IMG/VR virus record: IMGVR_UViG_3300025263_000044
Direction: 5' to 3' (one strand)
From: a virus
DNA length: 64,000 nt
Part shown: positions 6,234 to 60,834 of the stretch, piece by piece
How the letters are laid out: every line of letters starts with the position of its first letter
Position numbering within the stretch: the stretch's first letter is position 1
Notes under the pieces: generated by a model
What the model was told of the DNA's origin: nothing
Database searches by the model: none
The model's input: the letters and a program-made list of their open reading frames with translations, nothing else
Made by a program: the position numbers and the translations under genes

Positions 6234-6869
6234 GTGGATGTTACAGAAGTGATTGTCGTTGATGACCACGCCATGGTGCGGAAGGGGGTTACGCTCCTTC
6301 TGCAGGAGCTCGGCTGGTCTATTGCTGCGGAAGCTGGTTCTATTCAGCAGGCCAACTTAGCTGTGCGGACCACCAGCTGGTCCATGATGGTGCTGGACCT
6401 GACCCTGCCCGACGGTGACGGGTTATCCTTCCTGCAAGAACTGCGTTCGGAAGGCTACAAGCAGCCTATCCTGGTGCATAGCCTGATGCCCGACAGCGCG
6501 GTTGCCGGCCGCGTGTTCAAGATGGGTGGCAGTGGCTTTATCAGCAAGACCTGCGAGCCAGACGATTTCCTTGCTGCCTGCCGAAAGGTTATTGCCGGCG
6601 GCCGTTACGTCAGTCCCGAGTATGCGGAGGAACTGGCCATGTCGCTCGCCGGCGGTACTCCGGCCAACCTGCATGAAAAGCTGTCAGAACGCGAATACCA
6701 GGTCATGTGCCATATCGCGTCCGGCAAGACCCCGTCCCAGGTCGCAGCGTCGATTGGATGCAGCGTGAACACGATAAGTACGTTCCGCTCCCGCATCCTG
6801 AAGAAGCTGGACCTTAAAACCAGCATGGACATCATGAAGTACGCCACCATGCATAAGCTGGTGGCCTGA
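6234..6869 (+). CDS. NarL/LuxR-family response regulator
   Basis: VVDDH acidic pocket, VLDLTLPD phosphoacceptor, conserved Lys in GFISK, LSEREYQV LuxR HTH. Confidence 0.92.
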   Translation: MDVTEVIVVDDHAMVRKGVTLLLQELGWSIAAEAGSIQQANLAVRTTSWSMMVLDLTLPDGDGLSFLQELRSEGYKQPILVHSLMPDSAVAGRVFKMGGSGFISKTCEPDDFLAACRKVIAGGRYVSPEYAEELAMSLAGGTPANLHEKLSEREYQVMCHIASGKTPSQVAASIGCSVNTISTFRSRILKKLDLKTSMDIMKYATMHKLVA

Positions 6870-6880
6870 CAACTTTGTGA

Positions 6881-7639
6881 TTATGCGGCCGGCACGGGTA
6901 TAGCCCAGATGTCGGCCAGCTCCTGGATGTGCACTTCAATGTTCTGGAGCGTGAAGCCGCCATCCTCGGCACGATACCTGTTTTCAAGTTTGACAACGCG
7001 TGCTGACGGAATGTGCTTCGTAACCAGGGCGCAAAGCGCAGCCCGGCTCGAGTCACAATCGTTGACCACCCATTCCCCCTCGCTGTCGGCCGCGAAAGCA
7101 AAGCCGCGCGCCAGCATGTCGGCCTGCCACTTGAGATTGTCCGTTCCCGCGGCCGCAGCAGGCGATTCTTCGGCTTGGCGGAAAACACCGTACAGCATGC
7201 AGCTGAGCGACACGAAGCAGCCGCCCTTGCCAAAACGGATGTCGCCGATGTAACCAAAGCCTTCCTGGTCCCACCACTTTTCCAGGTGGGAAGTCAGCTG
7301 GCCGAGGCTTCCTTGCAGCATATCTGGGGCGTGTGCGCGACCCAGCTGCGCTTCTAGCTCCTTGACTCGAGCGCGCATGCGCTTCATTTCTTCGTTGCGG
7401 CGCAGGACCTCATCGGCGCCGTCAATAACCACGCCCAGGGTTTTGCCGAGGCCGGCCAAGTTGTATTCAACAGCCTTCAGGCACCCGACTGCTTGCTGCT
7501 CGGTCAAGGCAACCTGGCTAATGTCTGCGTTGGGCTTGAGGTAGCTGTGCAGTAAGGCACCAGCTTGCTGCAGTTTGACCAGAGCGCTGCAAGCTACTGC
7601 ACGCGTGTCAGCGGTCAAGTTAACAATGGGTCCGGACAT
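6881..7639 (-). CDS. Hypothetical protein (coiled-coil N-terminus)
   Basis: 252-aa ORF with a GGAGA RBS. Confidence 0.75.
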   Translation of the reverse strand: MSGPIVNLTADTRAVACSALVKLQQAGALLHSYLKPNADISQVALTEQQAVGCLKAVEYNLAGLGKTLGVVIDGADEVLRRNEEMKRMRARVKELEAQLGRAHAPDMLQGSLGQLTSHLEKWWDQEGFGYIGDIRFGKGGCFVSLSCMLYGVFRQAEESPAAAAGTDNLKWQADMLARGFAFAADSEGEWVVNDCDSSRAALCALVTKHIPSARVVKLENRYRAEDGGFTLQNIEVHIQELADIWAIPVPAA

Positions 7640-7663
7640 ACTTTCTCCTAAGTTGATTGCTCA

Positions 7664-7678
7664 TTATATGGTATACTG
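7664..7678 (+). promoter_or_regulatory. Extended -10 sigma70 promoter for ruvB
   Basis: TTATATGGTATACTG; the identical 15-mer occurs at 55161-55175. Confidence 0.55.
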
Positions 7679-7704
7679 TGATGATACTCAATAAGAGGTG
7701 AGCA

Positions 7705-8760
7705 ATGAATACCACCGCGCGCCCGCGCAAATCTCGCGCTGCCGACACTGCTGCGGCGCCGGCCGAGCAAGCTCCGATTAAATCCCCGCAGGCCCAGGCT
7801 GGCGAACCAGGTGAGGACCGTGCACTGCGCCCCAAGAGCCTGGCTGATTATGTTGGCCAGCAAGCGCTGCGCGACCAGCTCGCAATCTTCCTTGCCGCGG
7901 CCAAGCACCGGTCGGAGGCTCTCGACCATGTGCTGCTGTTCGGGCCGCCGGGCTTGGGGAAAACGACGTTGGCGCAAATCATCGCTTACGAACTGGGGGC
8001 CGGGCTCAAGGTGACATCCGGGCCGGTGCTCGAGAAACCCGGCGACCTGGCTGCGCTGCTCACGCAGCTCTCCCCCAATGACGTGCTGTTCATCGACGAG
8101 ATTCATCGCCTGCCACCGGTGGTGGAGGAAGTCTTGTACCCGGCCATGGAGGATTACAAGCTCGATATCATGGTCGGCGAGGGTAAGGAAGCGCGCACCG
8201 TAACTGTTCCGTTGTCGCCCTTCACCTTGGTCGGCGCAACCACGCGCGCCGGCAGCTTGTCAGCGCCACTGCGTGACCGCTTCGGCATTACCGGCCGGAT
8301 GGAGTATTACACCGCGGAGGAACTGGAAGCCATCGTCAGCCGCTCGGCGGGCTTGCTCAGTGTTGACATGGCGCCGGGCGCCGCGCTGGAGGTGGCCAAG
8401 CGAGCGCGCGGTACCCCCCGAATTGCCAACCGGCTGCTGCGGCGCGTGCGTGACTATGCGACGGTTAACGGCGAAACCGAAGGGCAGGTCGACCTGGTCG
8501 ATGCAAAGGCTGCGCTGGGAATGCTCGGTATCGACGTCGCAGGCCTCGATACCTTGGACCGGCGCCTGATGCAAACCATGCTGGATTTCTACTCCGGCGG
8601 ACCCGTTGGCATCGAAACACTCGCGGCCGCGCTGGGAGAGGCACGCGATACGCTGGAAGATGCGGTTGAGCCTTATCTGATTCAACAGGGCCTGCTCCAG
8701 CGTACGCCTCGCGGCCGGCAGGTCACCGACATTGCGCGCAAGCACCTGGCCGGCGCATGA
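7705..8760 (+). CDS. ruvB: Holliday junction branch-migration helicase RuvB
   Basis: [70 protein letters not shown]. Confidence 0.96.
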
Positions 8761-12182: not shown

Positions 12183-12365
12183 AAAATTCAATTTACGGAC
12201 AACAGCTGCAAAAACGCGAGCCAAGGGCCGCGGCGGCCCACTTTCTGGATAACCCGATTTTTGGCTATCCCGTACTATGGCATAACCAGAACCGGAAATC
12301 CCGAAAAACCGGGCAGCCAGAAAAAAGAGGGGTTTGGTTAATCCGTTGTCCGTAAATTGAATTTT
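12183..12365. repeat. Perfect 21-bp inverted repeat enclosing 141 bp
   Basis: AAAATTCAATTTACGGACAAC (12183-12203) and GTTGTCCGTAAATTGAATTTT (12345-12365). Confidence 0.9.
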
Positions 12366-12517
12366 ATTATATGGCCGAATTTCGTTTCCGCAAGGCATTT
12401 CTGCGATATTTTCTGGCTGGCTGCAAGGGATGCTGGGGCGCTATACCGGTCAAGTGCGATGTTCGTAAAAACACACATCAAGCGCGTATCGCTCGATTTA
12501 ACGACCAAAGGAAATTC

Positions 12518-12946
12518 ATGATTTCACTACGACCTTATCGGAACCTGGCCTGGGTTGCCGGCGCCATCGGCTTCGCCGTGACCCTCGCGTACGTTCTTGC
12601 TTCCAATGGTGAGGGCCAGTTCTACCAGCGCTCGCCGTTGATGTGGGACTTGCGCCTGGAGGCGCAAAAGGACCCAGTCTCCGGCCGCGACACTTCGGCG
12701 GTCCTGCTTAAGCACTACCCGGCGGGGACGGATAAACAGGTGGTGGTCACCGGCTTGCTGAACTCTGGCTTCCAGGTGCTGTCCATGGTGCCATGCAAGG
12801 CCGGTGACTATGACGCGTGCGAGTTGGTCGTCTTAGACGCTTCGCACCAGCGGTCCTTCACGAAGACCTCGCACCGAGTCTCACTGGTGTTCGCGCATGG
12901 CAAACTGACCGCGGCCCGGGCGCACATCGGGTTGACCGGCATTTAA
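12518..12946 (+). CDS. Membrane-anchored hypothetical protein
   Basis: N-terminal TM segment LAWVAGAIGFAVTLAYVLA; AAGGA RBS. Confidence 0.7.
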   Translation: MISLRPYRNLAWVAGAIGFAVTLAYVLASNGEGQFYQRSPLMWDLRLEAQKDPVSGRDTSAVLLKHYPAGTDKQVVVTGLLNSGFQVLSMVPCKAGDYDACELVVLDASHQRSFTKTSHRVSLVFAHGKLTAARAHIGLTGI

Positions 12947-22381: not shown

Positions 22382-22581
22382 CGCGTCCTCATTGTTGGTT
22401 CATGGAATAGATGGTACTATACTGTATAAACGCACTTCTGACAAGTCTTGCTTGTAAAAATTGACAAACTTTAGTTGTCATTTTCTGCATTTGCAGGTAT
22501 TTGTCAGTCTTCCATCAACCTCCTCGCCTCTATACTGATATGCAGCGAAATTGCTGTTTTCACTTAGAGGACATACTTAAC

Positions 22582-24927
22582 ATGATTACCAATATCCAAA
22601 ATCCATCGCTGGGCAAGCAAATGCTTTCCCAATCCAAGTTCTTCATGGGCTATTCCCGCTGGGTCGAAGGCGTTCAAGCCTACGAAACCTGGGCAGAATC
22701 CGTGTCGCGTGTGATGACCATGCACCGCAAGAAGTACACCGCCAAGATGTCGGCGAAGCTGGAAGCCTACATTGCAAAGGCACAAAAAGCGTACGAGGCC
22801 CAAAAGGTCCTGGGCGCCCAACGTGCACTGCAATTCGGCGGTGAGCAGCTCCTGAAACATGAAGCGAAGATGTACAACTGCTCCGTGTCGCATGCAGACC
22901 GTCCGGCCTTCTTCCAGGAGACCGAATACCTGCTGCTGTGCGGCTGCGGCGTGGGCTTCTCGGTTCAGTGGCGTCACGTGAAGAAGCTGCCACGCATCAT
23001 GGCGCGTTCGTCGGCTGACGTGAAGGTTTTCCAGATTCCCGATAGCATCGAGGGTTGGGCACAAGCGTTCGGCGTTCTGCTGTCGTCCTATTTCGAGGAT
23101 GGCGGCACGTTCCCTGAATACAAAGGCTACCGCGTGCTGTTCGACTATTCGCTGATTCGCGAAAAGGGCGCTCCGATTTCGGGTGGCTTCAAAGCCCCTG
23201 GTCCGGACGGCCTGCGTGCGGCGTTGGTGAAGTGCGAAGCTCTGCTGGAGCGTGCACTGCAGAATGCGGCTTACGCGCGAGCGGGCGAAATCGCGGTTGC
23301 GAACATCGCTGGCCTGCCAGAGCTGAAAATCGACCTGCCGAAGTTCGCCTCGGGTGAGACTCACTCGTACGACGATGCTGTTGGTGCGAAGCTGAAGCCT
23401 ATCGAAGTCTACGACTTCGTGATGCACATGTCCGATGCCGTTCTGTCGGGTGGTGTCCGTCGTTCCGCGACCATCTGCCTGTTCGACAAGTTCGACCTGG
23501 AAATGATGAAAGCCAAGACCGGTAACTGGCAGGTTGAAAACCCACAACGCGGCCGCAGCAACAACTCTGTTGTGCTGAAGAAGGATGAAATCAGCCGTGA
23601 AGAATGGGCTGAAATCATGCGCTCGGTTAAGGAGTTCGGTGAGCCTGGCTTCATCTTCGTCGACGACTTCGACTTTGCGTACAACCCGTGCGTTGAAATC
23701 GGCATGTTGCCAAAGTGCTTTGATACCGGCGAGTCTGGTTTCCAGTTCTGCAACCTGACCGAAATTAACGGCGGCCTGTGCGTGGATGAAGAAAGCTTCT
23801 ACGAAGCGTGCGAAGCCGGCGCCATCCTGGGCACCTTGCAAGCTGGTTACACCAACTTCAAGTTCCTGGGCGATGCGACCCGTCGCATTACCGAGCGTGA
23901 AGCGCTGATTGGCGTATCGATTACGGGCTGGATGAACAATCCGGACATCCTGTTCGACGAACGTATCCTCAAAAAGGGTGCCGAAATCGTCAAGGAGACC
24001 AACCGTATCATCGCTAAGCTGATTGGCATCCGTCCTGCGGCTCGTACCACCTGCGCCAAACCTTCGGGCAACGCGTCGGTGCTGCTGGGCACTGCATCTG
24101 GTATCCACGGCGAGCACTCCGAGATGTACTTCCGCAATGTGCAGATGAACATCGACGATGCGGTTGCGCAGCTGATTCAGAAAATCAACCCGAAAATGGT
24201 TGAGAAGAGCGTCTGGAGCAGCAACGGTACCGACATCGTGGTCAGCTTCCCGGTTATCTCGAAAGAGACTTCCGTGTACAAGGCCGACCTGATGGGCGTC
24301 AAGCAGCTGGAGTTCGTTAAGAAGGCTCAGCAACACTGGGTCGAGAACGGCACCAACGTTGACCTGTGCGTGCACCCGGCCCTGCGTCACAACATCTCGA
24401 ACACCATTTCGGTGGACGACTGGGATGCGGTGGAAGAGTACATCTTCAACAACCGTCAGCACTTCGCGGGCATCTCTCTGATGGCTGCGGCCGGTGACAA
24501 GGCTTACGCCCAGGCACCGTTCACTGAAGTCAATACGGCAGAAGAGATTCTGAAGAAGTACGGCGAGGCCAGCATGTTCGCTTCCGGTCTGATTGTTGAC
24601 GGCTTGCACGCCTTCAATGACAACCTGTGGCTGGCATGTGACACCTCGATGGGCAACGGCGAAACGCTGACCGATGACTCGCGTGATGTTCTCAAGCGTG
24701 ACTGGGTCCGTCGTTTCGGCAAGTTCTCCGACAACTTCTTCGGTGGCGACGAGCTGAAGGCTTCCTTCTGCCTGAAGGACTGCTACAACCTGCACAAGTG
24801 GGTCAGCATCCAACAGACGATGAAAGCCATCGATTTTGCTGAGGCACTGGCAAAACGTGCTGATGTGGACGCCGATACGCTGGGTTCCCAGGGCTGCTCT
24901 GGTAACGCATGTGAAATCGTCTTCTAA
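22582..24927 (+). CDS. nrdJ: Ribonucleotide reductase large subunit, class II (NrdJ/RTPR-like)
   Basis: GGVRRSATI, NPCVEI active site, FCNLTEIN, TTCAKPSGNAS, C-terminal GCSGNAC; no nrdB adjacent. Confidence 0.85.
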   Translation: MITNIQNPSLGKQMLSQSKFFMGYSRWVEGVQAYETWAESVSRVMTMHRKKYTAKMSAKLEAYIAKAQKAYEAQKVLGAQRALQFGGEQLLKHEAKMYNCSVSHADRPAFFQETEYLLLCGCGVGFSVQWRHVKKLPRIMARSSADVKVFQIPDSIEGWAQAFGVLLSSYFEDGGTFPEYKGYRVLFDYSLIREKGAPISGGFKAPGPDGLRAALVKCEALLERALQNAAYARAGEIAVANIAGLPELKIDLPKFASGETHSYDDAVGAKLKPIEVYDFVMHMSDAVLSGGVRRSATICLFDKFDLEMMKAKTGNWQVENPQRGRSNNSVVLKKDEISREEWAEIMRSVKEFGEPGFIFVDDFDFAYNPCVEIGMLPKCFDTGESGFQFCNLTEINGGLCVDEESFYEACEAGAILGTLQAGYTNFKFLGDATRRITEREALIGVSITGWMNNPDILFDERILKKGAEIVKETNRIIAKLIGIRPAARTTCAKPSGNASVLLGTASGIHGEHSEMYFRNVQMNIDDAVAQLIQKINPKMVEKSVWSSNGTDIVVSFPVISKETSVYKADLMGVKQLEFVKKAQQHWVENGTNVDLCVHPALRHNISNTISVDDWDAVEEYIFNNRQHFAGISLMAAAGDKAYAQAPFTEVNTAEEILKKYGEASMFASGLIVDGLHAFNDNLWLACDTSMGNGETLTDDSRDVLKRDWVRRFGKFSDNFFGGDELKASFCLKDCYNLHKWVSIQQTMKAIDFAEALAKRADVDADTLGSQGCSGNACEIVF

Positions 24928-26239: not shown

Positions 26240-26458
26240 TTACTTCAGTGGGTGAGAAAAAGGTGCAGCTTTTACAACCAAATACCACCAGCAAATGCAA
26301 AGAATGACACCGATGGCCACCATGAATGCCTTGCTACCCCAGCTGTTGGGGATGCCGCCGAAGGTGTACCTGCGCATAGTGTTGAGCATGTTCAGGCCCC
26401 AGATAGCCGTCACGAACGTGAAGAAGATGGCTACGACGAGCCAACCGATAATCGCCAT
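26240..26458 (-). CDS. Small two-TM membrane protein
   Basis: Two hydrophobic helices. Confidence 0.65.
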   Translation of the reverse strand: MAIIGWLVVAIFFTFVTAIWGLNMLNTMRRYTFGGIPNSWGSKAFMVAIGVILCICWWYLVVKAAPFSHPLK

Positions 26459-26820
26459 CAGTTTGCTCCGGCCAGGTCGACGAGCATGTTGTTTGCGTCC
26501 TCAAGCTTTGCCCAGAAGCGTACCTGGCGCTTGACGGGGGTCTTGCGCCAGGTAGTAGCTTTGGCGCTCGCGCCGACGATACGAAAACTGATGCTATCGA
26601 AGCTTCCTTGTCCTTGCCGGATGTAATAGCGGTCAATAATGAGCTCGGTCCCCGCCGGCAGCTCGGCCGGAATCGCCTCGGGTTGGTACGCTACTTTGCG
26701 GCTATCGCCCAGCATGGCCATGAGCGATTCGTTTCGACGCTCGTTATAAAGACTAAACTGCCATGGACGAGCAAGCACCAGGTGTGTGCCCAGTGGGGGC
26801 ACGAAAAGTGTGAAGGGCAT
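26458..26820 (-). CDS. Hypothetical protein
   Basis: Start MPFTLF behind AGGAG. Confidence 0.7.
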   Translation of the reverse strand: MPFTLFVPPLGTHLVLARPWQFSLYNERRNESLMAMLGDSRKVAYQPEAIPAELPAGTELIIDRYYIRQGQGSFDSISFRIVGASAKATTWRKTPVKRQVRFWAKLEDANNMLVDLAGAN

Positions 26821-26906
26821 GATAACTCCTAGAATACCTAGTAGTATATCATAAAACGTCAATTAACCCAAGGCATAACTGGAATACTAGCCACCAGGTA
26901 CGGGAC

Positions 26907-27170
26907 TTACGCGCGCGAACTAACTTGGGCGGAGGCCGGGTCAACTGGCTCAACCGAAACCAGTGTTTCGACTGCAATGAGATGCCGCTTGCCGTTGTCT
27001 TTTTCGACCTTAAGGAAGGGAATCTTTGGCAAGCCGACCGGGCCGATGCGCTTATGCCCTACAAACTTGCGAACCTTGCGCTCACCTGCGATAACCACGC
27101 CGTCATCAGGTTCGAAGCCTTTGGTAGTGAAGGCGTAGGCGACGCCAGGGGTCAAAGTGGACAGGTCCAT
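26907..27170 (-). CDS. Hypothetical protein
   Basis: 87-aa ORF. Confidence 0.65.
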   Translation of the reverse strand: MDLSTLTPGVAYAFTTKGFEPDDGVVIAGERKVRKFVGHKRIGPVGLPKIPFLKVEKDNGKRHLIAVETLVSVEPVDPASAQVSSRA

Positions 27171-27218
27171 GGGTTTGCTTTCAGTGAAGGAAAGCCCGGA
27201 CAGTGCCCGGGCTTGAGG

Positions 27219-27584
27219 TTAGTCGCCTAACCAGACGGCCGCTTCATCGGCCCATTCGGTCAGGTAGTTCAGCACCCAGTCGGCAAATGCTCCAGCCGGG
27301 GTTGCTTTGGTGGTCAGGTCTGTGACGGTCAGGTTCTCCAGGCGATGGACGATTTCTTCCAGGTCCTGGTCATGGTTGTCCTGCTGGTAGTCCAGCCAGT
27401 TCTTTGGCACGCCGCGGCGCAGTACTTCCGCGATTTCCTTGCTGGCGGCCAGCACCTGGTGTACATCTGGGGATTCGCCCAGTGCACGCAGGATAGGCTG
27501 GATATTTGCCTTAAACGGCCATGTCGATTTGTCGCCAACCGTTTCTGGATGGCAGGTGCATTCCGGGGTGATAGAGCATTGCAT
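27219..27584 (-). CDS. Hypothetical protein
   Basis: AAAGGA RBS; CCTATAC 36 nt upstream. Confidence 0.7.
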   Translation of the reverse strand: MQCSITPECTCHPETVGDKSTWPFKANIQPILRALGESPDVHQVLAASKEIAEVLRRGVPKNWLDYQQDNHDQDLEEIVHRLENLTVTDLTTKATPAGAFADWVLNYLTEWADEAAVWLGD

Positions 27585-27641
27585 GATATTTCCTTTACAA
27601 GAGTGGATAGCCTACTGTTGTATAGGAAAGGGGCGCTTCGG

Positions 27642-27998
27642 TTATCCCACCGTGCCAGGCGGGCCGTTATGTACGGCGATATTTGCCGCGCGCAGCTCGG
27701 CCATAGCTTCGTCAAAATCTGCGGTGCTGGCAATGATGCAGGACGCGTTGTCGGCCGGGGAATAAGCATAAAGCAGTGCATACCAGATGCCTCGGTCAAG
27801 CCCGGAAACCTGCCAGACATGTGGGAAGGTCTGAGCTGCTGCGATGACGGCTGCGCGGCGACCGCGACGAGCTTCGAACTCAATGACAGCCGGTGTCGGC
27901 TTCTTCTTCCCCTCGGTGTGCTTGGCCCACATGGCCCACAGCAGGCACCCTGCCAAGCCAATGAGGCCCACCAAAACCACTTTGTCTGCAAAGCTCAT
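27642..27998 (-). CDS. Membrane-anchored hypothetical protein
   Basis: N-terminal TM; GGAG RBS. Confidence 0.65.
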   Translation of the reverse strand: MSFADKVVLVGLIGLAGCLLWAMWAKHTEGKKKPTPAVIEFEARRGRRAAVIAAAQTFPHVWQVSGLDRGIWYALLYAYSPADNASCIIASTADFDEAMAELRAANIAVHNGPPGTVG

Positions 27999-28079
27999 GA
28001 TTGCTCCAATTTGTGCTGGTTCTTCGGTCAAGCCAAAGGCCGCGCGATGGCGGCCTTCGACCTTCACGAGATGCCCGGA

Positions 28080-28832
28080 TTATTTACCGGTCAGTCGACG
28101 CAGACGGTCTGCGGCCGACTCGGCTGCAGGGGCGGCGCCGCCGGCAGCGATGCGGCGAGCTTCTTCGACAGCGTTCGCACGGTCGATTGGCTTCTGACCG
28201 ATGTCGGCCACGATGGCGGCGGAATCGGCTTGCACGCGCAGCTGCTCGGCTTTCTTGTTCAGGGCGCCCAGTGCAGTGGAGGACGAGCCCAGGCCGGCTT
28301 TCAGTGAGCGCATTTCTTCCTGGCCCTGCAGGCGCAGCTGTTCGCGTTCGTGGTCGGCTTTAGCTTGCTCGATGGCGCGCAGCGCTTTCTTGGCGTTGGC
28401 GTCGAAGTCGGCCAGCTTCTTGTCGATGGTGTCCAGGATGCCTTGCAGCGTGTCGACCAGCTCCTTGGCGTCGGTCGCGTCCTGCAGTTCACCAGGCAGG
28501 CGGCCCTTCATGTCTTCCAGGTTGTTGGCGAATTCGGTCAGGGTCGCTTCGTCGATGGAGCCGGCTTCGAACTTCTGCAGCAGCACGGCAGCGGCTTTTT
28601 CGTCCTGGGCGATTTGTGCGGCCAGGTCCTCGGCTTCGCGTTTTTCGGCATCGTACTTACGGCGGGCCTCGGCCAGCTTAGTTGCGACTTCACGCAGCTT
28701 GGCAACCAGGTTGTCGCGGTCGACTTGGGTTGCGGTTTCTGGGTCGAAGGCGGCCAGCGACTGAGCGACGCTATCGCCCAGGGCGCCGATTTGGTTCAGA
28801 AACAGTTTGGCGGCAAGCTTCCATCCGGACAT
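28080..28832 (-). CDS. PspA/IM30-like coiled-coil protein
   Basis: About 250 aa, amphipathic N-terminus, long Ala/Glu/Lys coiled coils, C-terminal AADRLRRL. Confidence 0.55.
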   Translation of the reverse strand: MSGWKLAAKLFLNQIGALGDSVAQSLAAFDPETATQVDRDNLVAKLREVATKLAEARRKYDAEKREAEDLAAQIAQDEKAAAVLLQKFEAGSIDEATLTEFANNLEDMKGRLPGELQDATDAKELVDTLQGILDTIDKKLADFDANAKKALRAIEQAKADHEREQLRLQGQEEMRSLKAGLGSSSTALGALNKKAEQLRVQADSAAIVADIGQKPIDRANAVEEARRIAAGGAAPAAESAADRLRRLTGK

Positions 28833-28991
28833 GTGCATTCCTTTTTGTAGGGTTGATACAGAGGGTACAGCGCAGACTTTGCGATGTATTGAGTGACAGT
28901 ATATCACGGAATGCGCAAATATGAAAACTAATTCATGGTATAATTGGTCAAGCTCGGAAGTGGTCCGCAGCGCCAGGCCTTGGAGTTTTTC

Positions 28992-29810
28992 ATGTTTCAG
29001 TCCATCTCGTTTGCCGGTTTGAAGAATTCCGTCCGATTTGGCTACGCGGCGGAGCTGTCCTTCTTCAAAGAGCGCAAGAATCTCGAATTCAAGCCAGGCC
29101 TGAACATCCTTTTTGGTCCCAACGGATGCGGCAAAAGCACTGTCTTGCGCATGCTCGCCGGCAACATGTGTGCGGAGCAGGGCGGGGTGTCCACCGTGAC
29201 CGAGGCGTCCATCCGCAATGCGGTGGACATGATGGCCAATATCTCAAACCCGCGTAGCAAGCTTAAGCACTCCATTGGCCTCAAAATCGCTCACGACGCG
29301 CAGCCCATCGTATTTTGCGACCCGCGCGACCGCGTTGGCCTGGCCGGCGGGCACTTCGACAACGACTTCATTCAGCAGGGTTTGGTCGAAAAGCTCACGA
29401 ACAGCCGTAGTAGCCACGGCGAGGCGGTGCTTACGCGCGCCAGCACGGCTTTGGCGGTCTTAGGCGGCCGCGCGCAGTTTCCTGCGGTGGTTGACTACCG
29501 CGTGAATCGCAAAGCCATGAACAGCACCTGGACGTCCGCACTGGACCTGGTTGAGGCCGCAATGAGGGCCTCCATTGCGCGCGGTCAGCCGAGTGTGTTG
29601 CTCGATGAACCTGAGGCCAACTGCTCCCTGGTTTGGCAGAGCCGAATGTGGCAGATGCTGGCGGATGAAGCTGTTGCTGCCAATTTCCAGATTCTTGTGG
29701 CCACGCATAGCCCATACGCCTTGGGCATCAAGCACGCGAACTACATCGAATTCGAGCCAGGCTACCGTGAGGAGGCGGAAGCAGGCCTTCGGGCACGATT
29801 CGTAGGCTAA
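28992..29810 (+). CDS. Stand-alone ABC-type ATPase (AAA_21-like)
   Basis: GPNGCGKST, SHGE signature, LLDEPE, VATHSP. Confidence 0.8.
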   Translation: MFQSISFAGLKNSVRFGYAAELSFFKERKNLEFKPGLNILFGPNGCGKSTVLRMLAGNMCAEQGGVSTVTEASIRNAVDMMANISNPRSKLKHSIGLKIAHDAQPIVFCDPRDRVGLAGGHFDNDFIQQGLVEKLTNSRSSHGEAVLTRASTALAVLGGRAQFPAVVDYRVNRKAMNSTWTSALDLVEAAMRASIARGQPSVLLDEPEANCSLVWQSRMWQMLADEAVAANFQILVATHSPYALGIKHANYIEFEPGYREEAEAGLRARFVG

Positions 29811-29819
29811 TCCTATTGC

Positions 29820-30155
29820 TTGCCAGTGTGGCAGCCCGCCGGAATTCGTCGTACACTTTCCTCACCCATCGTCTTTGGAGGAGAAGTCTTGCCTACGTCG
29901 AACTTACTCGAGTCGTCCGGACCGAAGGAACAGGTTCTCCGCGCGCTAGCTGCATCTCCAGACCCCTTAGATGCCTACCAGGTGGCCAAGATTGCCGGTG
30001 TTACACCGATACAGGCCGGGCGCACCCTGGCCAAGCTTGCCTTGAAGGGGATTGTTCGAACGCAGGACCCACTTGGTACGGTCGATGACCTTGCCGCGCG
30101 CTACACCTTGGTAAGCGACGTCGCAGATACATCCGAGCCAGGTTCGACCGGTTGA
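29820..30155 (+). CDS. Small winged-HTH protein (start uncertain)
   Basis: DAYQVAKIAGVTPIQAGRTLAKLALKGIV. Confidence 0.5.
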   Translation: MPVWQPAGIRRTLSSPIVFGGEVLPTSNLLESSGPKEQVLRALAASPDPLDAYQVAKIAGVTPIQAGRTLAKLALKGIVRTQDPLGTVDDLAARYTLVSDVADTSEPGSTG

Positions 30156-30325
30156 TGAAAGACGTTGCAGCATCCGCAGAATCGATGCCTCACGTCCTCA
30201 GGGTGGAAAGATTCTCTACCGCACTTCAGGCACGTGATGGACTTGCGTCCAGCGCTGATTCGATAAGTGGCCTCCTGAGTAACAGGCGAGCTGGCGGACG
30301 GCTGAGAGTCGGTACTGCGGGTCAT
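30101..30325 (-). CDS. Small Cys-rich zinc-ribbon protein
   Basis: CLKCG...FCGCCNVFH; AGGAGG RBS. Confidence 0.6.
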   Translation of the reverse strand: MTRSTDSQPSASSPVTQEATYRISAGRKSITCLKCGRESFHPEDVRHRFCGCCNVFHQPVEPGSDVSATSLTKV

Positions 30326-30389
30326 GTGCGCCTCCTGGTCAAGGCATGAGCGTACCACAGGGCCTCTCGGCCCTGCTAGGTTGTCTCGG

Positions 30390-31178
30390 TCAGATGACCT
30401 TGAGCTTCAGTGGTTCCAGGGTCAAGCCGACCAGAAAATCGACGTGCACGGCCGGAGCACGCTGTCCGTCGACGGAATCCACAACTTCGAACGAGATAAG
30501 CAGGTTCTCGCGATTGCCGTCAGGCAGCTGGCGGACGTAAGGCATGAAGTGCATTTTCTGACGCATGCCCTTCATGCCCGACTGGTCATCCAGCCTGTTT
30601 TCGACAGCGGTGTACGGGCGAACGTAATCTTCTTGACCCGGCGTGTCGCGCTGGTAGTCCAGCGTTTCGGCGCCGGCCAGGAGTGCTGAAATCTGTTCTG
30701 GGGTCAGGTCGCCCAGTGTGAGCTGGTCCTCACCCAGGTTGTACCAGAGCTGGCCCAGTCCATAACCTTTGCCCTGGTACGGTTCCTGGTCCTCAGCCGT
30801 GGCTGGAGTCAGGCGGAACAGCTGCTGGTAGTAGGTGGCTTCCACCGGCTGGCCATTTTTCGCTAACACCTGCAGGAAGGTTTGTCCCGCATCGGTGCGG
30901 CGGTCGCCGGCGTTCGTGTAGAAGCGGAAGATTTCCAGCGAGGGGTCGGCATCCAGGCGAACACGGCCAATCGACTGGATTTGCATTTGACTGGAACTAG
31001 GCACCTTCAGCAAGGTGCCGTCCAAAATGGCGAAGGAGGCGCGTGGCACTTCCATCAAACTGCCAATCTGGGCGCCGTATGGCAGGCCAGTATCCTGGCG
31101 CGGCAGCGTGTTGGCAGCAGCTTTGGCATGGTCTACGCGCTTTTCGAGGATACGCTTACCGAGTTGGAACAGAGACAT
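30390..31178 (-). CDS. DUF2491 (YjfK-like) family protein
   Basis: GLPYGAQIGS N-terminus; Y-x-R-D...; C-terminal acidic and hydrophobic beta pattern. Confidence 0.5.
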   Translation of the reverse strand: MSLFQLGKRILEKRVDHAKAAANTLPRQDTGLPYGAQIGSLMEVPRASFAILDGTLLKVPSSSQMQIQSIGRVRLDADPSLEIFRFYTNAGDRRTDAGQTFLQVLAKNGQPVEATYYQQLFRLTPATAEDQEPYQGKGYGLGQLWYNLGEDQLTLGDLTPEQISALLAGAETLDYQRDTPGQEDYVRPYTAVENRLDDQSGMKGMRQKMHFMPYVRQLPDGNRENLLISFEVVDSVDGQRAPAVHVDFLVGLTLEPLKLKVI

Positions 31179-31187
31179 CGCGGGTCC

Positions 31188-32237
<1,050 letters not shown>

Positions 32238-32335
32238 AATCCACACCTTTGTGATTGATGTCTTGCAGTATATCACAAAATGCGACTAAGTGCGAACTTT
32301 ACTTGTATCGTAGCGTTTATTCGCCTTTCAGCAAG

Positions 32336-32830
32336 TTAAGCAGGATGCGATTCCATCACTTCCTTGATGCGGTCGGCTTCGCATTCCGCCGATTCCACCA
32401 TGTCGGAAATCAAATTCATGGGGTGGCCGCGCAGCCACAGCTTGATGGCTTCATGGTCATCATCGGTCTGTGCGCTAACGTGCAGCTGAACCAGGCGATT
32501 GTATTCTTGCTGGAGCCAAAGCGGCTGCTCTTCCAGCTTAAATCGACGTCCTTCGAACAAAGGCAACTCGCCAACCTTGCGCTCGGTGCCGCGCAGTGCG
32601 GCCGCCAGGCGCTCGCACCACACTGCCATTTTCAGCCGGGCGTCGTCCACATTGTCACCGGACAGGTCCATGATGTGCATTGCGCCGGCGATGACTTTGC
32701 CGGTTCGCGGGTCTACCTGGAGCTGCATGACCTGCTCCAATGTGGTGCGCAGTCGGCCCACATTGTGGCGAACGTTGTAGCTCAGGGAAACCAGGCCTGC
32801 ATCCATGCGCATATCAGTAAGTTCAAGCAT
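32336..32830 (-). CDS. Hypothetical protein
   Basis: 164 aa, GAAGGA RBS. Confidence 0.7.
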   Translation of the reverse strand: MLELTDMRMDAGLVSLSYNVRHNVGRLRTTLEQVMQLQVDPRTGKVIAGAMHIMDLSGDNVDDARLKMAVWCERLAAALRGTERKVGELPLFEGRRFKLEEQPLWLQQEYNRLVQLHVSAQTDDDHEAIKLWLRGHPMNLISDMVESAECEADRIKEVMESHPA

Positions 32831-32947
32831 GGCAGCTATCCTTCATCAGTTGTTCAACCATGTGCTCGAAACGGCGCGCGGCGAATTTGTCGACCAAGTC
32901 GAAATTGAGGTTCATGATTGGTTCCATATTCATCATCAATAATAGTG

Positions 32948-33646
32948 TCAGGCTGGGTCCACGAGTGGCATCAGAAGCTTGGTCCACTCTTCTTCGGTCA
33001 TATACCCCAACGCCAACCGGGCAAAAAACGCTTTCTCTTTGAGACGCTCGAATTCCAGTGGCGACAACTCGGCCAGGTGTTCAGGCCAGCCGGAAGCGGT
33101 CAGCGCCTGGTGCTGGGAGGCCGGCATCGGAATAGTCATTGGCTCCACGTCCTTGAACGCGGACAGCCAGCCATCGTGCACAGCCCGGATGATGTCTCGC
33201 AGCTGAGCTGACGCTGGTAAGCGACGCAGCTTCCGGACAGCCCGGGCGTTCATCGCCGCATACAACACAGGAGGCAGGTTTGGTACCAGCGCAACCCAGA
33301 AGCACGCACCTTTGGTGTCGCTGTGCTTCTTGAGGCTCGCGTAGATACGGTCGCCAAAAGCATGGTCCCAGCCATTCTTGAGCGTATGCCGGGTGTATCC
33401 GTAAAGGGCGCGCAGTTCGGCAGCCGCGGCCGAGTAAGGGAACCGCTGCATAATCTGCTCTTCGATGTTGCCCTCCGGATTGCCTTTGTCCCCGAGCAGC
33501 TGGAACGGAAACTCCTGGCCAGTAGGCACATGGCGCAGCAACACATACGTCTTTGGTTCTTGTCCGCTGACATGCTCAGCATGCCGCGTTCCCTTGAGGG
33601 TAGGCGCCACGGAGATGTGAAATTCGCGATAAATACTAGGGTGCAT
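32948..33646 (-). CDS. Hypothetical protein
   Basis: Start MHPSIY; extended -10 TGTGGTATACT upstream. Confidence 0.7.
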   Translation of the reverse strand: MHPSIYREFHISVAPTLKGTRHAEHVSGQEPKTYVLLRHVPTGQEFPFQLLGDKGNPEGNIEEQIMQRFPYSAAAAELRALYGYTRHTLKNGWDHAFGDRIYASLKKHSDTKGACFWVALVPNLPPVLYAAMNARAVRKLRRLPASAQLRDIIRAVHDGWLSAFKDVEPMTIPMPASQHQALTASGWPEHLAELSPLEFERLKEKAFFARLALGYMTEEEWTKLLMPLVDPA

Positions 33647-33768
33647 ACAAAAATTATACAGGATTTTTGCGGAAGTATACCACAAAATAGTCACTATCGT
33701 AAACTAACCATACTTGACCAATTACTTTACTTGTGGAAAATATACGCATTTGTTAAGGGAGATTTCCA

Positions 33769-34731
33769 ATGTCTCGGGCAGAAATCGCACGGCCAGCGGC
33801 AAACGGTGATTTTTGGCCGGCACAGAACTTGGATGCGTGGCGCAGTGAACCGAGAAATTGCTTTTTGTCATGGTTGGCAGAGCAACGGGTTCTGGGTGTA
33901 CGGCAGCTGCGGGAATCGTCGTGTGAGACATACACCGCGATGTTTTCGGCATGGCTGACAGTTCTGGAAAAGGAACGCGGTGTGAGCTTGCTTGAAGCGG
34001 CACCCAAGGACGCTGCATACTTCTTTGAAACGCACAAAATTGACCGGGTCTCCAGGCGGCGATACCTCCACTTGCTGAACAAGGTATACCGATACCTGCG
34101 TGGCATAGGCTGGAGCGGAGAGAATCCTTTGTTGGCAGAGTTGAGAAATGATGCCGGCACGATTGATATCGCACTGCCGCCTGGCCTCGATGAAGCCTCT
34201 TTAGAAAAGGTCATCACGGTGTTGACCGCGCTACCAGGGTGGAAGGGTGCTCGCGACCGGTGTGCCGCGGCACTTCTCATAGGCGCCGGCCTGCGCGCGA
34301 ATGAGTTTATTGACCTACAGCAAGGCGATGTGTCGCCACATTATGAAATTCTCGTTAAACCACATACTGTCCATAAGGAACATTCCACCCTTATTTTGCC
34401 GGAGGGGCCGTGGCGCAGTTGGTATAAAGCCTGGGAGCATGAGCGTGCCGAGTTGAAATTTAAGAAGGAGGCTGGCTCGGTGCTTTGCCCAGGAACCTTA
34501 TCTGGGAGACCATACACGCCATCTGGATTGTTTCGGCGCGTGAACGAGTGGCTACAACCAATTGCAAGCGAACTGCCTCAGGCCGGGCCAAATATTCTGA
34601 GAAATACTTTCGCGCGGCTTGCCTTGACTTGCGACCGATACACACCTGAACAAGTGCAAGAATTTCTTGGCCACGTAGAATTTCGGACAACCTTTCGCCA
34701 CCTATCAGCTATTAATACTTCGGCTCCTTGA
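33769..34731 (+). CDS. XerC/D-like tyrosine recombinase with a degenerate active site
   Basis: GLRANE, PNILRNTFA, FLGHVEFRTTFRH; the expected Tyr position holds His. Confidence 0.8.
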   Translation: MSRAEIARPAANGDFWPAQNLDAWRSEPRNCFLSWLAEQRVLGVRQLRESSCETYTAMFSAWLTVLEKERGVSLLEAAPKDAAYFFETHKIDRVSRRRYLHLLNKVYRYLRGIGWSGENPLLAELRNDAGTIDIALPPGLDEASLEKVITVLTALPGWKGARDRCAAALLIGAGLRANEFIDLQQGDVSPHYEILVKPHTVHKEHSTLILPEGPWRSWYKAWEHERAELKFKKEAGSVLCPGTLSGRPYTPSGLFRRVNEWLQPIASELPQAGPNILRNTFARLALTCDRYTPEQVQEFLGHVEFRTTFRHLSAINTSAP

Positions 34732-34796: not shown

Positions 34797-36506
34797 ATGT
34801 TTAAACATTCAGTATTCATGCAGTTGACCCTCTTTATGGCGGTCGCCGCGGCAATAACAGGTTGCTTGTCCTTTCTTTACCTGGAATCGACCCCTTTTCT
34901 ACTTAGAGAGTTTCCTCAGTGGCGCTTTATCCATGAGGAGCTGCCGTTTGTAGTCGATGGTCTTTTTAGTCTTGTCTCTCTGATATTTTCTACGGCAGCT
35001 TTCGCAGAGTTCACTGTGTTAAGACGAGCACTCAAGCACGGCTTCAGTGAATTTGAGGTCCTGAATAATGTCTTGTATTCAGCTGATTTCGGTGAAGATG
35101 GCGGCGTATTTTATATGGATGAAACAAGGAAAATTCTGACAGCCAGTCAGCTTACATGGCGTGCCGCTTTAAAGTCCACACATAAAGACCTCGTAGGCAA
35201 GCGCTGTGATGAAGTTTTCCCTGATAAATTCAACCGCTTGCTCGACGAGCTTATCGAGCGAGCCATTGTGACACGCAGTCCGGCCGCAGTTGATATCTCA
35301 GACTGGGGACCTTATGGCCTAGCCTCAATGGGGCCAACGATGGTAATCGTGAATCCTGCACTGAAATTGAAGCGCCCCGTGGGCTTTGCTGTAGTGTTCC
35401 GAAGTCTGCGCGAGTTCAAGCTGGCGGAGGATTCCGCTATCATGCATCAGAAAAAATACCAGTCGCTATTCGACAATCTGGAAGTTGGGGTTGCAATCTT
35501 TCGGCCGGCGGTCAGTGACGACGGGGGGCCGGATGGCTATGTGACAGAAGCAAATTCAGCATTCAAACGCATTTTGGAAGGCATTCCGCTGCCGTATACG
35601 CAGCCCGCGTCTGTAGTTTGGCCAGGCATTATGAACGAAGGTCCGCTTCGGGACGGTATCACCCAGGTCATGGGAGGCGCACCCTCGGCAAAGTGTGAGA
35701 TTTTCTCTCCGTTGCTTGGCAAACACATTGCTATTTCACTGTCCGTACTGCCCGGCGGTCGTGTGCTAGTTGTCGTAGCCGACCAAACTGAAGCGAGGAT
35801 GCACGAGGCGCAGTTGCTTGCGTTCCATGAAAGGCTGCAGCGTTCGTTAACCGTCCAAAGCGAATATCTTTCACGCGTCGTGGAGGATATGACGAATTTC
35901 AATCAAGCCTCCATCGACGTAGCTGAAGCACATTTGGAGGCTATGACCGAACTGATTCCAAGCATTCCAGAGCCGCTCGCGTCGAAGATGGCGGACGCCT
36001 GCACATCCCTGCATAAAGTGCAATCGCAGTTTATTCGGTACTATGCCGCAAGCGGTTTGCCCTATAAAGAACATACTTTGGTTTCTCTAGGAGAAGTTGT
36101 TTCTCGGCTTACCGAAACTTTTAATTGCCGCCACCGCAACATTTCTTTTACTGTTGAATCGTTGCCGACGGTGGTTGGCAGCCAAGAAGTGCTGGCCAGC
36201 ATTCTTGAGCAGCTTCTGACAAGCCTTGCTAATCTACCAAATGCCGAACGCGCCAAAATTGAAATTGGCGGTAAACGAGATTTTCTCAGTACCGGACTTT
36301 ATGTGGCAGCCTGGGGATTTGATTATTCACAACTGTTTGTAGAGATTCCGCCAAATGAGCAAGTTCTTGATTGGACGCTTACCAGTGACCTCGACCTGGC
36401 TTTGGTACGCGCGATGGTCTTTGAGCACGGAGGCCAGCTCTCACTCGGGCCAACCAAAGACGGTGATGGGGTACGAGTAGCATTTACAATCGGCACGCCC
36501 CTCTAA
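34797..36506 (+). CDS. Membrane PAS-domain histidine-kinase-like protein (predicted pseudokinase)
   Basis: Two N-terminal TMs, two PAS-like domains (YQSLFDNLEVGVAIF), HisKA/HATPase-like C-terminus lacking H, N and G box residues. Confidence 0.7.
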   Translation: MFKHSVFMQLTLFMAVAAAITGCLSFLYLESTPFLLREFPQWRFIHEELPFVVDGLFSLVSLIFSTAAFAEFTVLRRALKHGFSEFEVLNNVLYSADFGEDGGVFYMDETRKILTASQLTWRAALKSTHKDLVGKRCDEVFPDKFNRLLDELIERAIVTRSPAAVDISDWGPYGLASMGPTMVIVNPALKLKRPVGFAVVFRSLREFKLAEDSAIMHQKKYQSLFDNLEVGVAIFRPAVSDDGGPDGYVTEANSAFKRILEGIPLPYTQPASVVWPGIMNEGPLRDGITQVMGGAPSAKCEIFSPLLGKHIAISLSVLPGGRVLVVVADQTEARMHEAQLLAFHERLQRSLTVQSEYLSRVVEDMTNFNQASIDVAEAHLEAMTELIPSIPEPLASKMADACTSLHKVQSQFIRYYAASGLPYKEHTLVSLGEVVSRLTETFNCRHRNISFTVESLPTVVGSQEVLASILEQLLTSLANLPNAERAKIEIGGKRDFLSTGLYVAAWGFDYSQLFVEIPPNEQVLDWTLTSDLDLALVRAMVFEHGGQLSLGPTKDGDGVRVAFTIGTPL

Positions 36507-36516
36507 CGTAGCCTAA

Positions 36517-38685
<2,169 letters not shown>

Positions 38686-59117: not shown

Positions 59118-60329
59118 CTACTTCCCCCAGGTGCTGACATTTTCCCGGGTAGGGCCATAGGAGCAGAACGCTACTGGCAGAATGCGAGCGTTGAGCGCCT
59201 GGACTTGGTCCGCCGGCGAAGCCGTATGAAGGATACCCGCTTCCCAGTAGTGTCCCTGCGCGCCCACCTGGTCCAGGCAGGTCACGGCCAGCATCGAGTC
59301 GATAGTCATAGCAGAGCCAGCTGCATCCGACATGTCATTCCGGATAGTCCTGGCCAGCAAATCATGGTCCAGGTACGCGAAGCGCAAGGTGCCCTGATAC
59401 TCGTTTGGCTGGTTGGTCAGGTCAACCACACCATCATACGGCCGGGTGTCCAGTTCTGCCGCGAGCGGGCCGGCACCATGGCGCGTCAGGTAGGCGCGAG
59501 TCACATAGACGACCTCCAACCTTTCAAAGCCCGCTTCGAGTGCCACATCAAGAGCATTCCGGATGCCAGTGTTTGAGCGAGTGACGAAGGGGAAGGCGCC
59601 GCGGGCCTGGTCCAAGAGCAGACCTTGGGCGCCTTCAAACACCACATTGCGGTGCCCAGCAAGCAGCTCAGATGCGGAGGATGCCAATTTGACGTCGGTG
59701 AAGAACTCTTGCGATGCCTTGATGAAGGCATCCACCAGAACATCCGACGTGCACAGTTCATGGTGAGGCCCAAAATCAGGTAAGCCCAGTTCCTTGCAGC
59801 GCGCCGGCAGGTGTTTATCTCGAATTTCTACCAGCTTCTCACGCAGAATGGTCACGTCGAGCAGGTCTTTGACTACCAGGTCGAATGCTTTGCCTTCGTG
59901 ACGACCAATCGTTTCACCGAAGCCCATGCCGCAGCTGCCGTGCCGGTTGTTGCCGCGGAAGTCTTCCACCAGCTGGTTGACCAGCATGTCAAAGAACGTG
60001 GTCACCGGCGCGCGCTCGTCCACATGGACGTATGGGATAAGCTGGCCGGGCAGCAGTTGCTGCAATTTCGCCCGCTCTTTCAAGAACAGGACTGGATTGA
60101 CGGCATAGTGCCGGGAAAGGTAGGTTTCGGCGCCGGCGAACGTGCCGCTACCGTAGTGGCTAAAGGCATGCCGCTTGCCATTAGCCGTGGTGACCGTGTG
60201 GCTAGCCTGGCATCCGCCATTGAAGCGTACAACAATGCTGTCTTCGCTCTTGGAGGCGAAATAGTCGGTCATGAGACCTTTGCCTTCATCGCCATAGTTG
60301 GCGCCGATGACCACGGTTGCAGTGCGCAT
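59118..60329 (-). CDS. purA: Adenylosuccinate synthetase-like protein (divergent, phage/mobile type)
   Basis: GANYGDEGKG, RFNGGCQASHTV, HGSCGMG, VFEGAQGLLLD, VTRSNTG, YLTRHGAGP. Confidence 0.85.
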   Translation of the reverse strand: MRTATVVIGANYGDEGKGLMTDYFASKSEDSIVVRFNGGCQASHTVTTANGKRHAFSHYGSGTFAGAETYLSRHYAVNPVLFLKERAKLQQLLPGQLIPYVHVDERAPVTTFFDMLVNQLVEDFRGNNRHGSCGMGFGETIGRHEGKAFDLVVKDLLDVTILREKLVEIRDKHLPARCKELGLPDFGPHHELCTSDVLVDAFIKASQEFFTDVKLASSASELLAGHRNVVFEGAQGLLLDQARGAFPFVTRSNTGIRNALDVALEAGFERLEVVYVTRAYLTRHGAGPLAAELDTRPYDGVVDLTNQPNEYQGTLRFAYLDHDLLARTIRNDMSDAAGSAMTIDSMLAVTCLDQVGAQGHYWEAGILHTASPADQVQALNARILPVAFCSYGPTRENVSTWGK

Positions 60330-60357
60330 GAACGTCCTTTGAAGACTGGTTGAGAAC

Positions 60358-60834
60358 TTATTGCTGATGCAGGGCAGGGCGGCCGTACTTTTGGCGGAAT
60401 TGCGCATCGACGTCCTGATACGCCGGCAGCGTTTTCATCTGCTCCAGCACATGGTCACGCAGCACCGGGCGACCATTGGGCAGGTCGGCAAACAGCTCGA
60501 AGCAAAAACCTTCCACTGGGCTCGGGTAGTCCGTGTATCGCTCAACGTAAATGCCGTTCGCTACTGCAGCGCGCACTGCGGCGGTGAGCTTGGTCGCCCA
60601 GGCCTTCCATTCGTCCGCCAGGGTGGTGCCAGCGGGGAGTAGTTTGGCTGCAGCATCCTGCCAAGCGTGCTCCACAGCCCACTCACCAGCGCTGGCTTTA
60701 CCCAACTCGGTATCGTCGGTGTCATAGATGATGGCACCATCGGCGGTGTATGCCGAGGTGGCCTTTGGGAAGCGCACGTGCACAAGCTCGCGCGCCAGTT
60801 CTTCCAGTTTCACACCTGGGCGATATCGTTCCAT
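60358..60834 (-). CDS. Hypothetical protein
   Basis: GAAGGAG RBS. Confidence 0.7.
   Translation of the reverse strand: MERYRPGVKLEELARELVHVRFPKATSAYTADGAIIYDTDDTELGKASAGEWAVEHAWQDAAAKLLPAGTTLADEWKAWATKLTAAVRAAVANGIYVERYTDYPSPVEGFCFELFADLPNGRPVLRDHVLEQMKTLPAYQDVDAQFRQKYGRPALHQQ

Follow-up and report, generated by a model that had tools for sequence, protein, structure and literature searches.

Xer-type recombinases such as XerA, XerH and the XerC/XerD pair share a two-domain clamp fold, and canonical enzymes of the wider superfamily donate a C-terminal helix or element to the neighbouring subunit in the synapse. Seven residues are catalytic (Arg-I, a Glu, the hairpin Lys, His-I, Arg-II, His-II and the nucleophilic Tyr), and the second histidine of the HxxRH motif is not among them. 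To our knowledge, recombinase-fold proteins that only bind DNA amount to very few cases, namely MrpR and SroF of Bacillus prophages. MrpR (also YopR) of SPbeta and SroF of phi3T are the master repressors of their prophages (PMC10516654; PDB 9rd5, 8a0a). In MrpR, His-I is an asparagine, the Tyr and the Lys are kept, and both arginines and His-II are lost (PMC10516654). The cost of individual changes is known from Cre, in which the His-I to Asn mutant H289N is active and all 19 substitutions of the Tyr (Y324), His included, are without detectable activity (PMC2943603).

The DNA analysed here (the window) is a stretch of 64,000 nucleotides from a virus. It encodes a protein, P0001, that has the clamp of the Xer-type enzymes and a histidine at the position of the nucleophilic tyrosine. 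We favour, with modest confidence, the reading that P0001 descends from a recombinase and binds or bridges DNA at specific sites without cleaving it. The family to which it belongs is conserved and is accompanied by a 13-base site of its own, and for this reason P0001 most likely binds rather than cuts DNA. The features on which the argument draws are collected in the table.

Table. Features of the window around the recombinase-fold gene and at the distant pair of inverted sites.
Feature	Coordinates	Strand	Remark
Left arm of a perfect 21-nt inverted repeat, contains TCAATTTACGGAC	12183..12203		Candidate cognate site
Right arm of the same 21-nt inverted repeat, contains GTCCGTAAATTGA	12345..12365		141 nt between arms
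Divergent 248-aa gene, no family match	32948..33694	-	Next to the recombinase-fold gene also in L011 and L130-L135
Sigma70-like promoter match, TTGACC-16-GAAAAT	33714..33741	+	Upstream of the recombinase-fold gene; consensus match only
Recombinase-fold gene, P0001, 320 aa	33769..34731	+	N-terminal core-binding helices, then catalytic-type domain
N275-I-L-R278-N279 replacing H-x-x-R-H	34591..34605	+	Aligns with HVLRH
Codon CAC, His311, nucleophile position	34699..34701	+	Codon read directly
569-aa membrane protein, weak PAS matches	34797..36506	+	Directly 3' of the recombinase-fold gene in nine of nine large-element loci
NAD-dependent DNA ligase LigA	36541..38685	+	Last gene of the conserved block

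The open reading frame has a Shine-Dalgarno sequence (AAGGGAG) 6-7 nt upstream and, as an earlier note on this DNA had stated, is full length; so are those of its homologues. Residues 146-308 match the Phage_integrase family (PF00589; Pfam E 2.4e-9). An AlphaFold2 model with the family alignment as input has a mean pLDDT of 91.5, and both Foldseek (E 5e-9) and VIA-align group it with XerA, XerH, the Tn1549 Int, IntI, Cre and lambda Int. The VIA Z scores are 20.6 for XerA, 19.1 for XerH and 13.5 for XerC/XerD. Judged by Pfam, the predicted structure and the two structure comparisons, P0001 has the core-binding and catalytic domains of the tyrosine recombinase superfamily and is an Xer-like member of it by its modelled fold. 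It differs from the Xer recombinases proper in its equivalog scores, which at 49 and 44 bits lie below the XerC/XerD cut-offs of 335 and 330 (NCBIfam TIGR02224/TIGR02225).

The register of the catalytic positions was set by aligning P0001 pairwise in HMMER with XerD (1a0p) and a second Xer-like chain, and its codons were read directly. The box I GLR arginine is R176 (CGC) and the LGH histidine is H302 (CAC); these two, the Glu and Arg-II are in register with the Xer-type enzymes. The H-x-x-R-H motif reads N-I-L-R-N (N275 AAT, R278 AGA, N279 AAT). TTFRH (residues 307-311) aligns with TTQIY or TTVQY, which places H311 on Y279 of XerD, and its codon differs from TAC by one base. H311 lies within the last helix of the model (305-318), the helix M location of the canonical tyrosine, and the last tyrosine of the protein is Y291. 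All of these motif readings agree with those of the earlier note. Its statement that several catalytic residues are changed is right in that two of the seven are altered, His-I to N275 and Tyr to H311. It is overstated because five are kept (R176 as Arg-I, E179 as Glu, K203 as the hairpin Lys, R278 as Arg-II and H302 as His-II), three of them invariant across the family. N279 does not add to the count, since the second histidine of the motif is non-catalytic and only two of the seven catalytic residues therefore differ. K203 aligns with the hairpin Lys of XerD in a hairpin whose alignment is uncertain, and the family has Arg there in 61 of 77 clusters and Ala or Ser in a Tyr-bearing plasmid subgroup. 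Since Asn at His-I is tolerated in Cre, the change of the tyrosine is the only clearly disabling one in P0001.

The homologues were collected by a search of 5.8 billion proteins, which gave 77 clusters of 41-65% identity, nearly all 300-340 aa long. Named members come from Burkholderia, Paraburkholderia, Aromatoleum and Novimethylophilus, and for the cluster of P0001 itself a 572-kb contig is on record. Matches in the ESM Atlas were generic integrase clusters. When 1.84 billion representatives were searched with a profile, there was a sharp score break around the family, which forms one clade (support 99) in a maximum-likelihood tree with poorly resolved deep branches. Arg-I (176), Arg-II (278) and His-II (302) are each identical in 77 of 77 clusters, and the Glu at 179 in 76. 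Position 275 (His-I) is N in 59 clusters, G in 11 and H in 5, and position 279 is N in 71 and S in 5. At position 311 there are 65 clusters with H, 6 with Y, 3 with L and one each with R, T and S. Tyr is also kept in four of the five members that have His-I, which are of the Azoarcus/Aromatoleum plasmid type. The dN/dS ratio (Nei-Gojobori) is 0.097 for the His-type pair L001/L002, 0.117 for the Tyr-type pair L007/L010 and 0.20-0.31 for deeper pairs. These sequence comparisons give good support to a conserved gene family and not to decay. The suggestion that the fold has been reused thus holds up. An alignment of homologues had been proposed as the check on whether the Tyr-to-His and His-to-Asn changes are kept under purifying selection, and it agrees with that expectation: the 30 closest clusters (P0001-P0030) all have His.

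Position 311 ranks 112th of 320 columns in conservation. It has changed at least 15 times on the maximum-likelihood tree, on which members with Tyr are dispersed, and it switches between His and Leu within a single shallow clade (P0057, P0067, P0060, P0069). Where 311 is Leu, Arg, Thr, Ser or Ile, R176, R278, H302 and the full length of the protein are retained. In the sequence record, then, position 311 is unlike a nucleophile in its behaviour. The tail after 311 has a median of 9 aa and a minimum of 2 across the family, which is so short that there is no room for the C-terminal element exchanged by canonical enzymes. Y291 was considered as a relocated nucleophile and ruled out. It belongs to an Arg-Tyr insertion that is peculiar to the family and nearly invariant; some His-type members have Phe, His, Met or Trp in its place. 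Because it is otherwise present whatever residue stands at 311, Y291 is structural and not a moved nucleophile.

An active enzyme of this superfamily can be recognised by a small set of features. Arg-I, Arg-II and His-II/Trp are in place as R176, R278 and H302. The His-I of HxxR is N275, a change that is not disabling on its own. The nucleophilic Tyr of helix M is absent, since H311 stands there. The C-terminal segment that would pack on a neighbouring subunit is missing as well, with 9 residues after position 311 in P0001. A core site, with two inverted arms separated by a spacer of 6-8 bp, is found neither at the gene nor at the motif linked to it, and the window has no inverted repeat within 350 bp upstream or 250 bp downstream of the gene. 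The behaviour of position 311, the short tail and the mutagenesis of Cre together favour a protein that holds DNA without cutting it.

Comparison of the flanks of family loci brought out a 13-mer, TCAATTTACGGAC (complement GTCCGTAAATTGA), whose inverted pair is newly recognised here. It occurs as an inverted pair on the replicon that carries the gene and is otherwise absent from the searched genomes. The window has two exact copies within the perfect inverted repeat of the table, about 21 kb from the gene, where the chance expectation of an exact 13-mer, estimated from the length of the window, is about 0.002. Tepidiphilus (2.4 Mb) has exactly two copies genome-wide, on either side of the gene and creA, and a Rhodocyclales MAG (2.2 Mb) has exactly two in the same layout. 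The two exact copies of an Aromatoleum MAG (5.3 Mb), 57 bp apart, lie directly upstream of the gene, as do the two of the Azoarcus plasmid pAZKH (737 kb), one of which has a single mismatch. Achromobacter anxifer (7.2 Mb) has three exact copies 4 kb from the gene. The IMG/VR record of L011 (129.6 kb) has one exact inverted pair, 136 bp apart and about 23 kb from the gene. Paraburkholderia fungorum (10.4 Mb) has three exact copies, two of them about 76-77 kb from two copies of the gene. These gene copies (G025 C2 and C4) are 98% identical and lie on different contigs, each with an exact 13-mer at that distance, which suggests that a large element has been duplicated. None of the genomes scanned for the 13-mer contained an exact match to the reversed pattern used as a control.

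The same element is found at His-type and Tyr-type loci. The pair of L006 has one mismatch, and L009, the most divergent member, has a diverged form of the motif, TCAAGTAACGCAC, immediately upstream of the gene and likewise as an inverted pair. L001 and L002 have a third, degenerate 13-mer 63-69 nt upstream of the gene and hence a short upstream pair as well. No motif was found within 8-10 kb of the gene in L003, L008 and L130-L135. The inverted 13-mers are usually 55-185 bp apart. The centre-to-centre distances, about 68-185 bp when taken by hand from the coordinates, showed no common helical phase. Each copy stands alone: its outer flank is A-rich, a second arm at a distance of 6-8 bp is missing, and it is therefore not a classical crossover site. 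Upstream of outgroup genes of 25% identity, inverted repeats were found at 4 of 41 loci as against 10 of 41 shuffled controls; the lack of an excess there indicates that the site pair is specific to the family of P0001. Scans of viral contigs with 14- and 16-mers returned single matches and no pairs, which we attribute to chance given the size of the collection. The 141-bp segment between the arms in the window matches neither an Rfam family (E up to 1) nor the sigma70 consensus. The literature yielded no paper on the His-for-Tyr family or on the 13-mer, for which the hits were primer coincidences only. The co-occurrence of gene and motif, which in whole genomes is found only near the gene, lends indirect support to a DNA-binding role of P0001 at this candidate site. 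To that extent it agrees with the DNA-binding part of the earlier proposal of a DNA-binding regulator.

Five sites have an outward-reading gene whose start codon follows the outer end of a 13-mer at a distance of about 10-70 nt. The gene is the family gene itself in L001, L002, L007 and L010 (at 9-26 nt in the last two) and ORF 12371-12946 in the window, where the right-arm 13-mer ends 10 nt before the ATG. These positions are operator-like as far as sequence can tell. In L183, where the genes at 4468-5553(-) and 6674-7801(-) flank the site pair of the IMG/VR relative, an RNA-ligase-like gene has a 13-mer copy shortly before its predicted start. By eye, this gene seems to have an HNH-type C-terminus, and the other side holds an operon whose first gene looks actin-like (ParM-type). 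Neither flanking gene has a homologue at the site pair of the window.

One lineage of very large phage-like elements has the recombinase-fold gene among its core genes. Nine large phage-like contigs share a fixed block of the 248-aa gene, the recombinase-fold gene, the PAS-like protein and LigA. In L005, L011 and L130-L135, whose contigs span 4.5 to 508 kb, the order is an RNR-like gene, a metallophosphatase gene, a variable insert, the divergent 248-aa gene, the recombinase-fold gene, the 569-aa PAS-like gene and LigA, often followed by a PAPS-reductase-like gene. The window and its IMG/VR relative also share a wider order, in which RuvB is followed after about 3.5 kb by the site pair and, about 20 kb further on, by the RNR-like gene and the recombinase-fold gene. 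The variable insert of the window is about 7 kb long (26300-32900, between the metallophosphatase and 248-aa genes) and encodes an ABC-type ATPase, a wHTH protein, a DUF2491 protein and a Pro/Gln-rich membrane protein. It is common to the window, L130 and L135 and absent from L005, L011 and L131-L133. The RNR-like gene of the window (22501-24927) is on the same strand as the recombinase-fold gene. It is on the opposite strand in the Achromobacter, IMG/VR and two metagenome relatives, with the orientation of the metallophosphatase unchanged (L005, L011 and L131-L133 compared), which looks like a local inversion or rearrangement.

Outside this lineage the contexts vary. On an Azoarcus megaplasmid the gene lies next to parA-parB and a replication gene, and there as well as on an Aromatoleum contig the gene and the site pair are directly upstream of parA-parB. 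In Tepidiphilus the gene lies between lnt and creA in a core chromosomal operon. Its neighbourhood there and in the Rhodocyclales MAG is miaB-phoH-ybeY-corC-lnt, with no partition or transfer genes nearby. Such varied contexts indicate that the family is patchily distributed, consistent with horizontal spread. In three Tepidiphilus congeners the interval from lnt to a PLP-enzyme gene contains neither the gene nor creA nor the motif. A clean transposon-like insertion was considered and rejected: homology breaks off at points 17-210 bp outside the repeats, and both arrangements have a 32-nt stretch in common, so that a simple repeat-bounded insertion is not borne out in Tepidiphilus. This 32-nt sequence, TAAAAGCGTGATAATTTGTATTATGTAAAATA, is identical at L187 3644-3675 and L002 8985-9016. 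It occupies the gene-creA spacer in Tepidiphilus and the same intergenic hot spot in a congener without both genes, and may be a promoter or regulatory element.

If P0001 is a protein that binds without cutting, its action can be outlined from the clamp and from the residues that grip the scissile phosphate in the enzymes (R176, E179, R278 and H302), all of which it has. One P0001 would clamp each 13-mer, the invariant arginines and His-II would grip the backbone phosphate, and H311 would contact the phosphate formerly attacked by the tyrosine. Tyr and His are both hydrogen-bond donors, and either might be preferred at 311 and yet be dispensable. Two bound copies could then bridge or loop the short segment between the 13-mers. 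Since the motif ends about 10-70 nt ahead of outward genes at the five sites, repression or gating of these genes would be the most likely output. Autoregulation cannot be the general function, because the pair lies 21 kb from the gene in the window and 4 kb from it in L005. In the large phage-like elements, the complex may mark a fixed position in cis, about 21-23 kb away from the gene.

MrpR and SroF are the functional precedent for such a protein, and the family of P0001 is a separate lineage that has kept its phosphate pocket. By analogy, P0001 is a candidate for the same use of the recombinase fold, encoded by a phage-like element and serving in DNA binding without recombination. MrpR and SroF bind a repeated element of their own genome, for which the co-occurring 13-mer would be the counterpart. 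Asn at His-I is common to MrpR and P0001. In other respects the two groups differ. MrpR and SroF have no detectable sequence relationship to P0001 and are not among its PDB sequence matches at E up to 1. Their VIA Z scores against P0001 (SroF 14.2, YopR/MrpR 11.5-12.0) are below those of the Xer proteins (about 20), Cre and lambda Int. Their hosts are Bacillus, whereas those of the P0001 family are Betaproteobacteria. The losses are also opposite, the P0001 family having kept both arginines and His-II and lost the Tyr.

Several observations count against a protein that only binds DNA. The link between protein and site is one of co-occurrence. The phosphate pocket is intact, as an enzyme would keep it, whereas MrpR lost both arginines. 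His at 311 is strongly preferred over other residues that are one base change from Tyr, which hints at a specific chemical role. The inverted pair encloses a short intergenic segment or, in L001/L002, the gene itself, and an inverted pair flanking a segment is the classic layout of an invertible switch. Tyrosine invertases (FimB/FimE with fimS; invertons) resemble these loci in having inverted repeats around a short intergenic segment, outward genes and a recombinase-family gene nearby. They differ in that P0001 has no Tyr and the spacing of the 13-mers goes down to 55 bp.

It is conceivable, at a distinctly lower level of confidence, that P0001 binds a cis-acting maintenance site (centromere-, origin- or oriT-like) and serves in the partition, replication or transfer of a plasmid or giant element. 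The position upstream of parA-parB in the Azoarcus megaplasmid and the Aromatoleum contig would fit such a role, as would the replication and repair block (RNR-like gene, LigA) of the large elements with one site pair per record. The inter-repeat segments of the window, L183 and L005 also have short repeated motifs in common. The core chromosomal context in Tepidiphilus and the Rhodocyclales MAG argues against it, and the sites show neither consistent helical phasing nor an iteron array.

Less probable is a role as a non-cleaving partner or modulator of a Tyr-bearing recombinase, either host XerC/XerD or another integrase, in which P0001 would cover sites or take the place of a subunit and thereby restrict exchange to one strand pair or block recombination. 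The kept pocket and clamp would permit normal site binding, and there are Tyr-bearing members inside the same family. A partner is hard to find, however. A search with the family profile, which is only moderately sensitive to distant integrases, found no second recombinase in any frame of the 64-kb window or beside the gene in 17 of 18 loci, the sole match being a 698-aa integrase 2.5 kb away on the Azoarcus plasmid. The 13-mer, which we take to be unrelated to proteobacterial dif, is a single element in distant inverted pairs and not a two-arm core site. The low Xer equivalog scores count against this role too, and the short C-terminal tail argues against normal subunit exchange. The earlier idea of a dominant inhibitor of XerCD is thus left unsupported.

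It is equally doubtful that P0001 is still an enzyme, a histidine recombinase or site-specific nickase in which His311, or water that it activates, attacks the DNA of the 13-bp sites to form a 3'-phosphohistidine and inverts or rearranges the inter-repeat segment. Such intermediates with DNA occur in the PLD/Tdp1 family. The (nearly) invariant R176, E179, R278 and H302, and the dominance of His over Phe, Cys, Asn, Asp or Ser as the replacement at 311, speak for this possibility. So do the inverted pairs around short intergenic segments, or around the gene in L001/L002, which recall invertons and hin/hix. The internal segment of the IMG/VR relative may also be opposite to that of the window relative to RuvB and the gene. 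A comparison of the two segments scored 29 in the same orientation and 25 when flipped against a null maximum of 23; they are homologous but partly palindromic, and the immediate flanks of the two site pairs are not homologous. Within the related pairs L007/L010 and L001/L002 the orientation is identical. Leu, Arg, Thr, Ser or Ile at 311 with the rest of the protein kept indicates that the residue is dispensable. For an inversion synapse, a spacing of 55-57 bp is very short. Each site is one 13-mer and not two arms around a 6-8 bp spacer, and the C-terminal exchange segment is absent. In Cre, Y324H and all other Y324 substitutions have no detectable activity (PMC2943603). Positive support for a histidine enzyme is absent, and we give slightly less credence still to its fullest form, a working recombinase or nickase that uses a histidine nucleophile in a tyrosine-recombinase/topoisomerase-IB active site and flips or processes the segment between the inverted sites.

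A recent inactivating mutation, a sequencing error or a decaying pseudogene, suggested by the single base between CAC and TAC, is refuted almost beyond doubt by the alignment of homologues (His in 65 of 77 clusters down to 41% identity, intact ORFs, dN/dS about 0.1) and by synteny kept in nine independent contigs.

If P0001 binds DNA as proposed, its family adds an independent, well-conserved betaproteobacterial case to the recombinase-fold proteins that only bind DNA. It offers a testable candidate site and a natural series of Tyr, His, Leu and other residues at the nucleophile position. With these, it becomes possible to ask what a recombinase clamp does after the loss of cutting and whether His can replace Tyr. 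The annotation of family genes as 'site-specific integrase' gives no basis for inferring integration or mobility.

The nearest outgroup (P0093-P0224) is a large metagenomic integrase-fold clade. It has mostly Lys or Thr at Arg-I, Arg at His-I, 'RN' after Arg-II, often Leu at His-II, and mostly Tyr at 311, with Leu, Phe or Ile at the Tyr position in about a third. Judging from these residues, it may be another branch in which catalysis is often lost. The best PDB sequence match of P0001, 9i5v chain 14 (401 aa), carries the label 'ribosome-associated translation inhibitor RaiA'. This label looks odd, since over residues 74-279 the chain aligns as an Xer-like recombinase and has LGH...Y intact. 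In addition to RuvB, the RNR-like protein and LigA, the window encodes RNase II-like, Fic, Nampt-like, PurA-like and PAPS-reductase-like proteins. The adenylosuccinate-synthetase-family gene at 59118-60407(-) (Pfam E 3e-45) lies in a phage-like element and might be a candidate for a PurZ-type enzyme.
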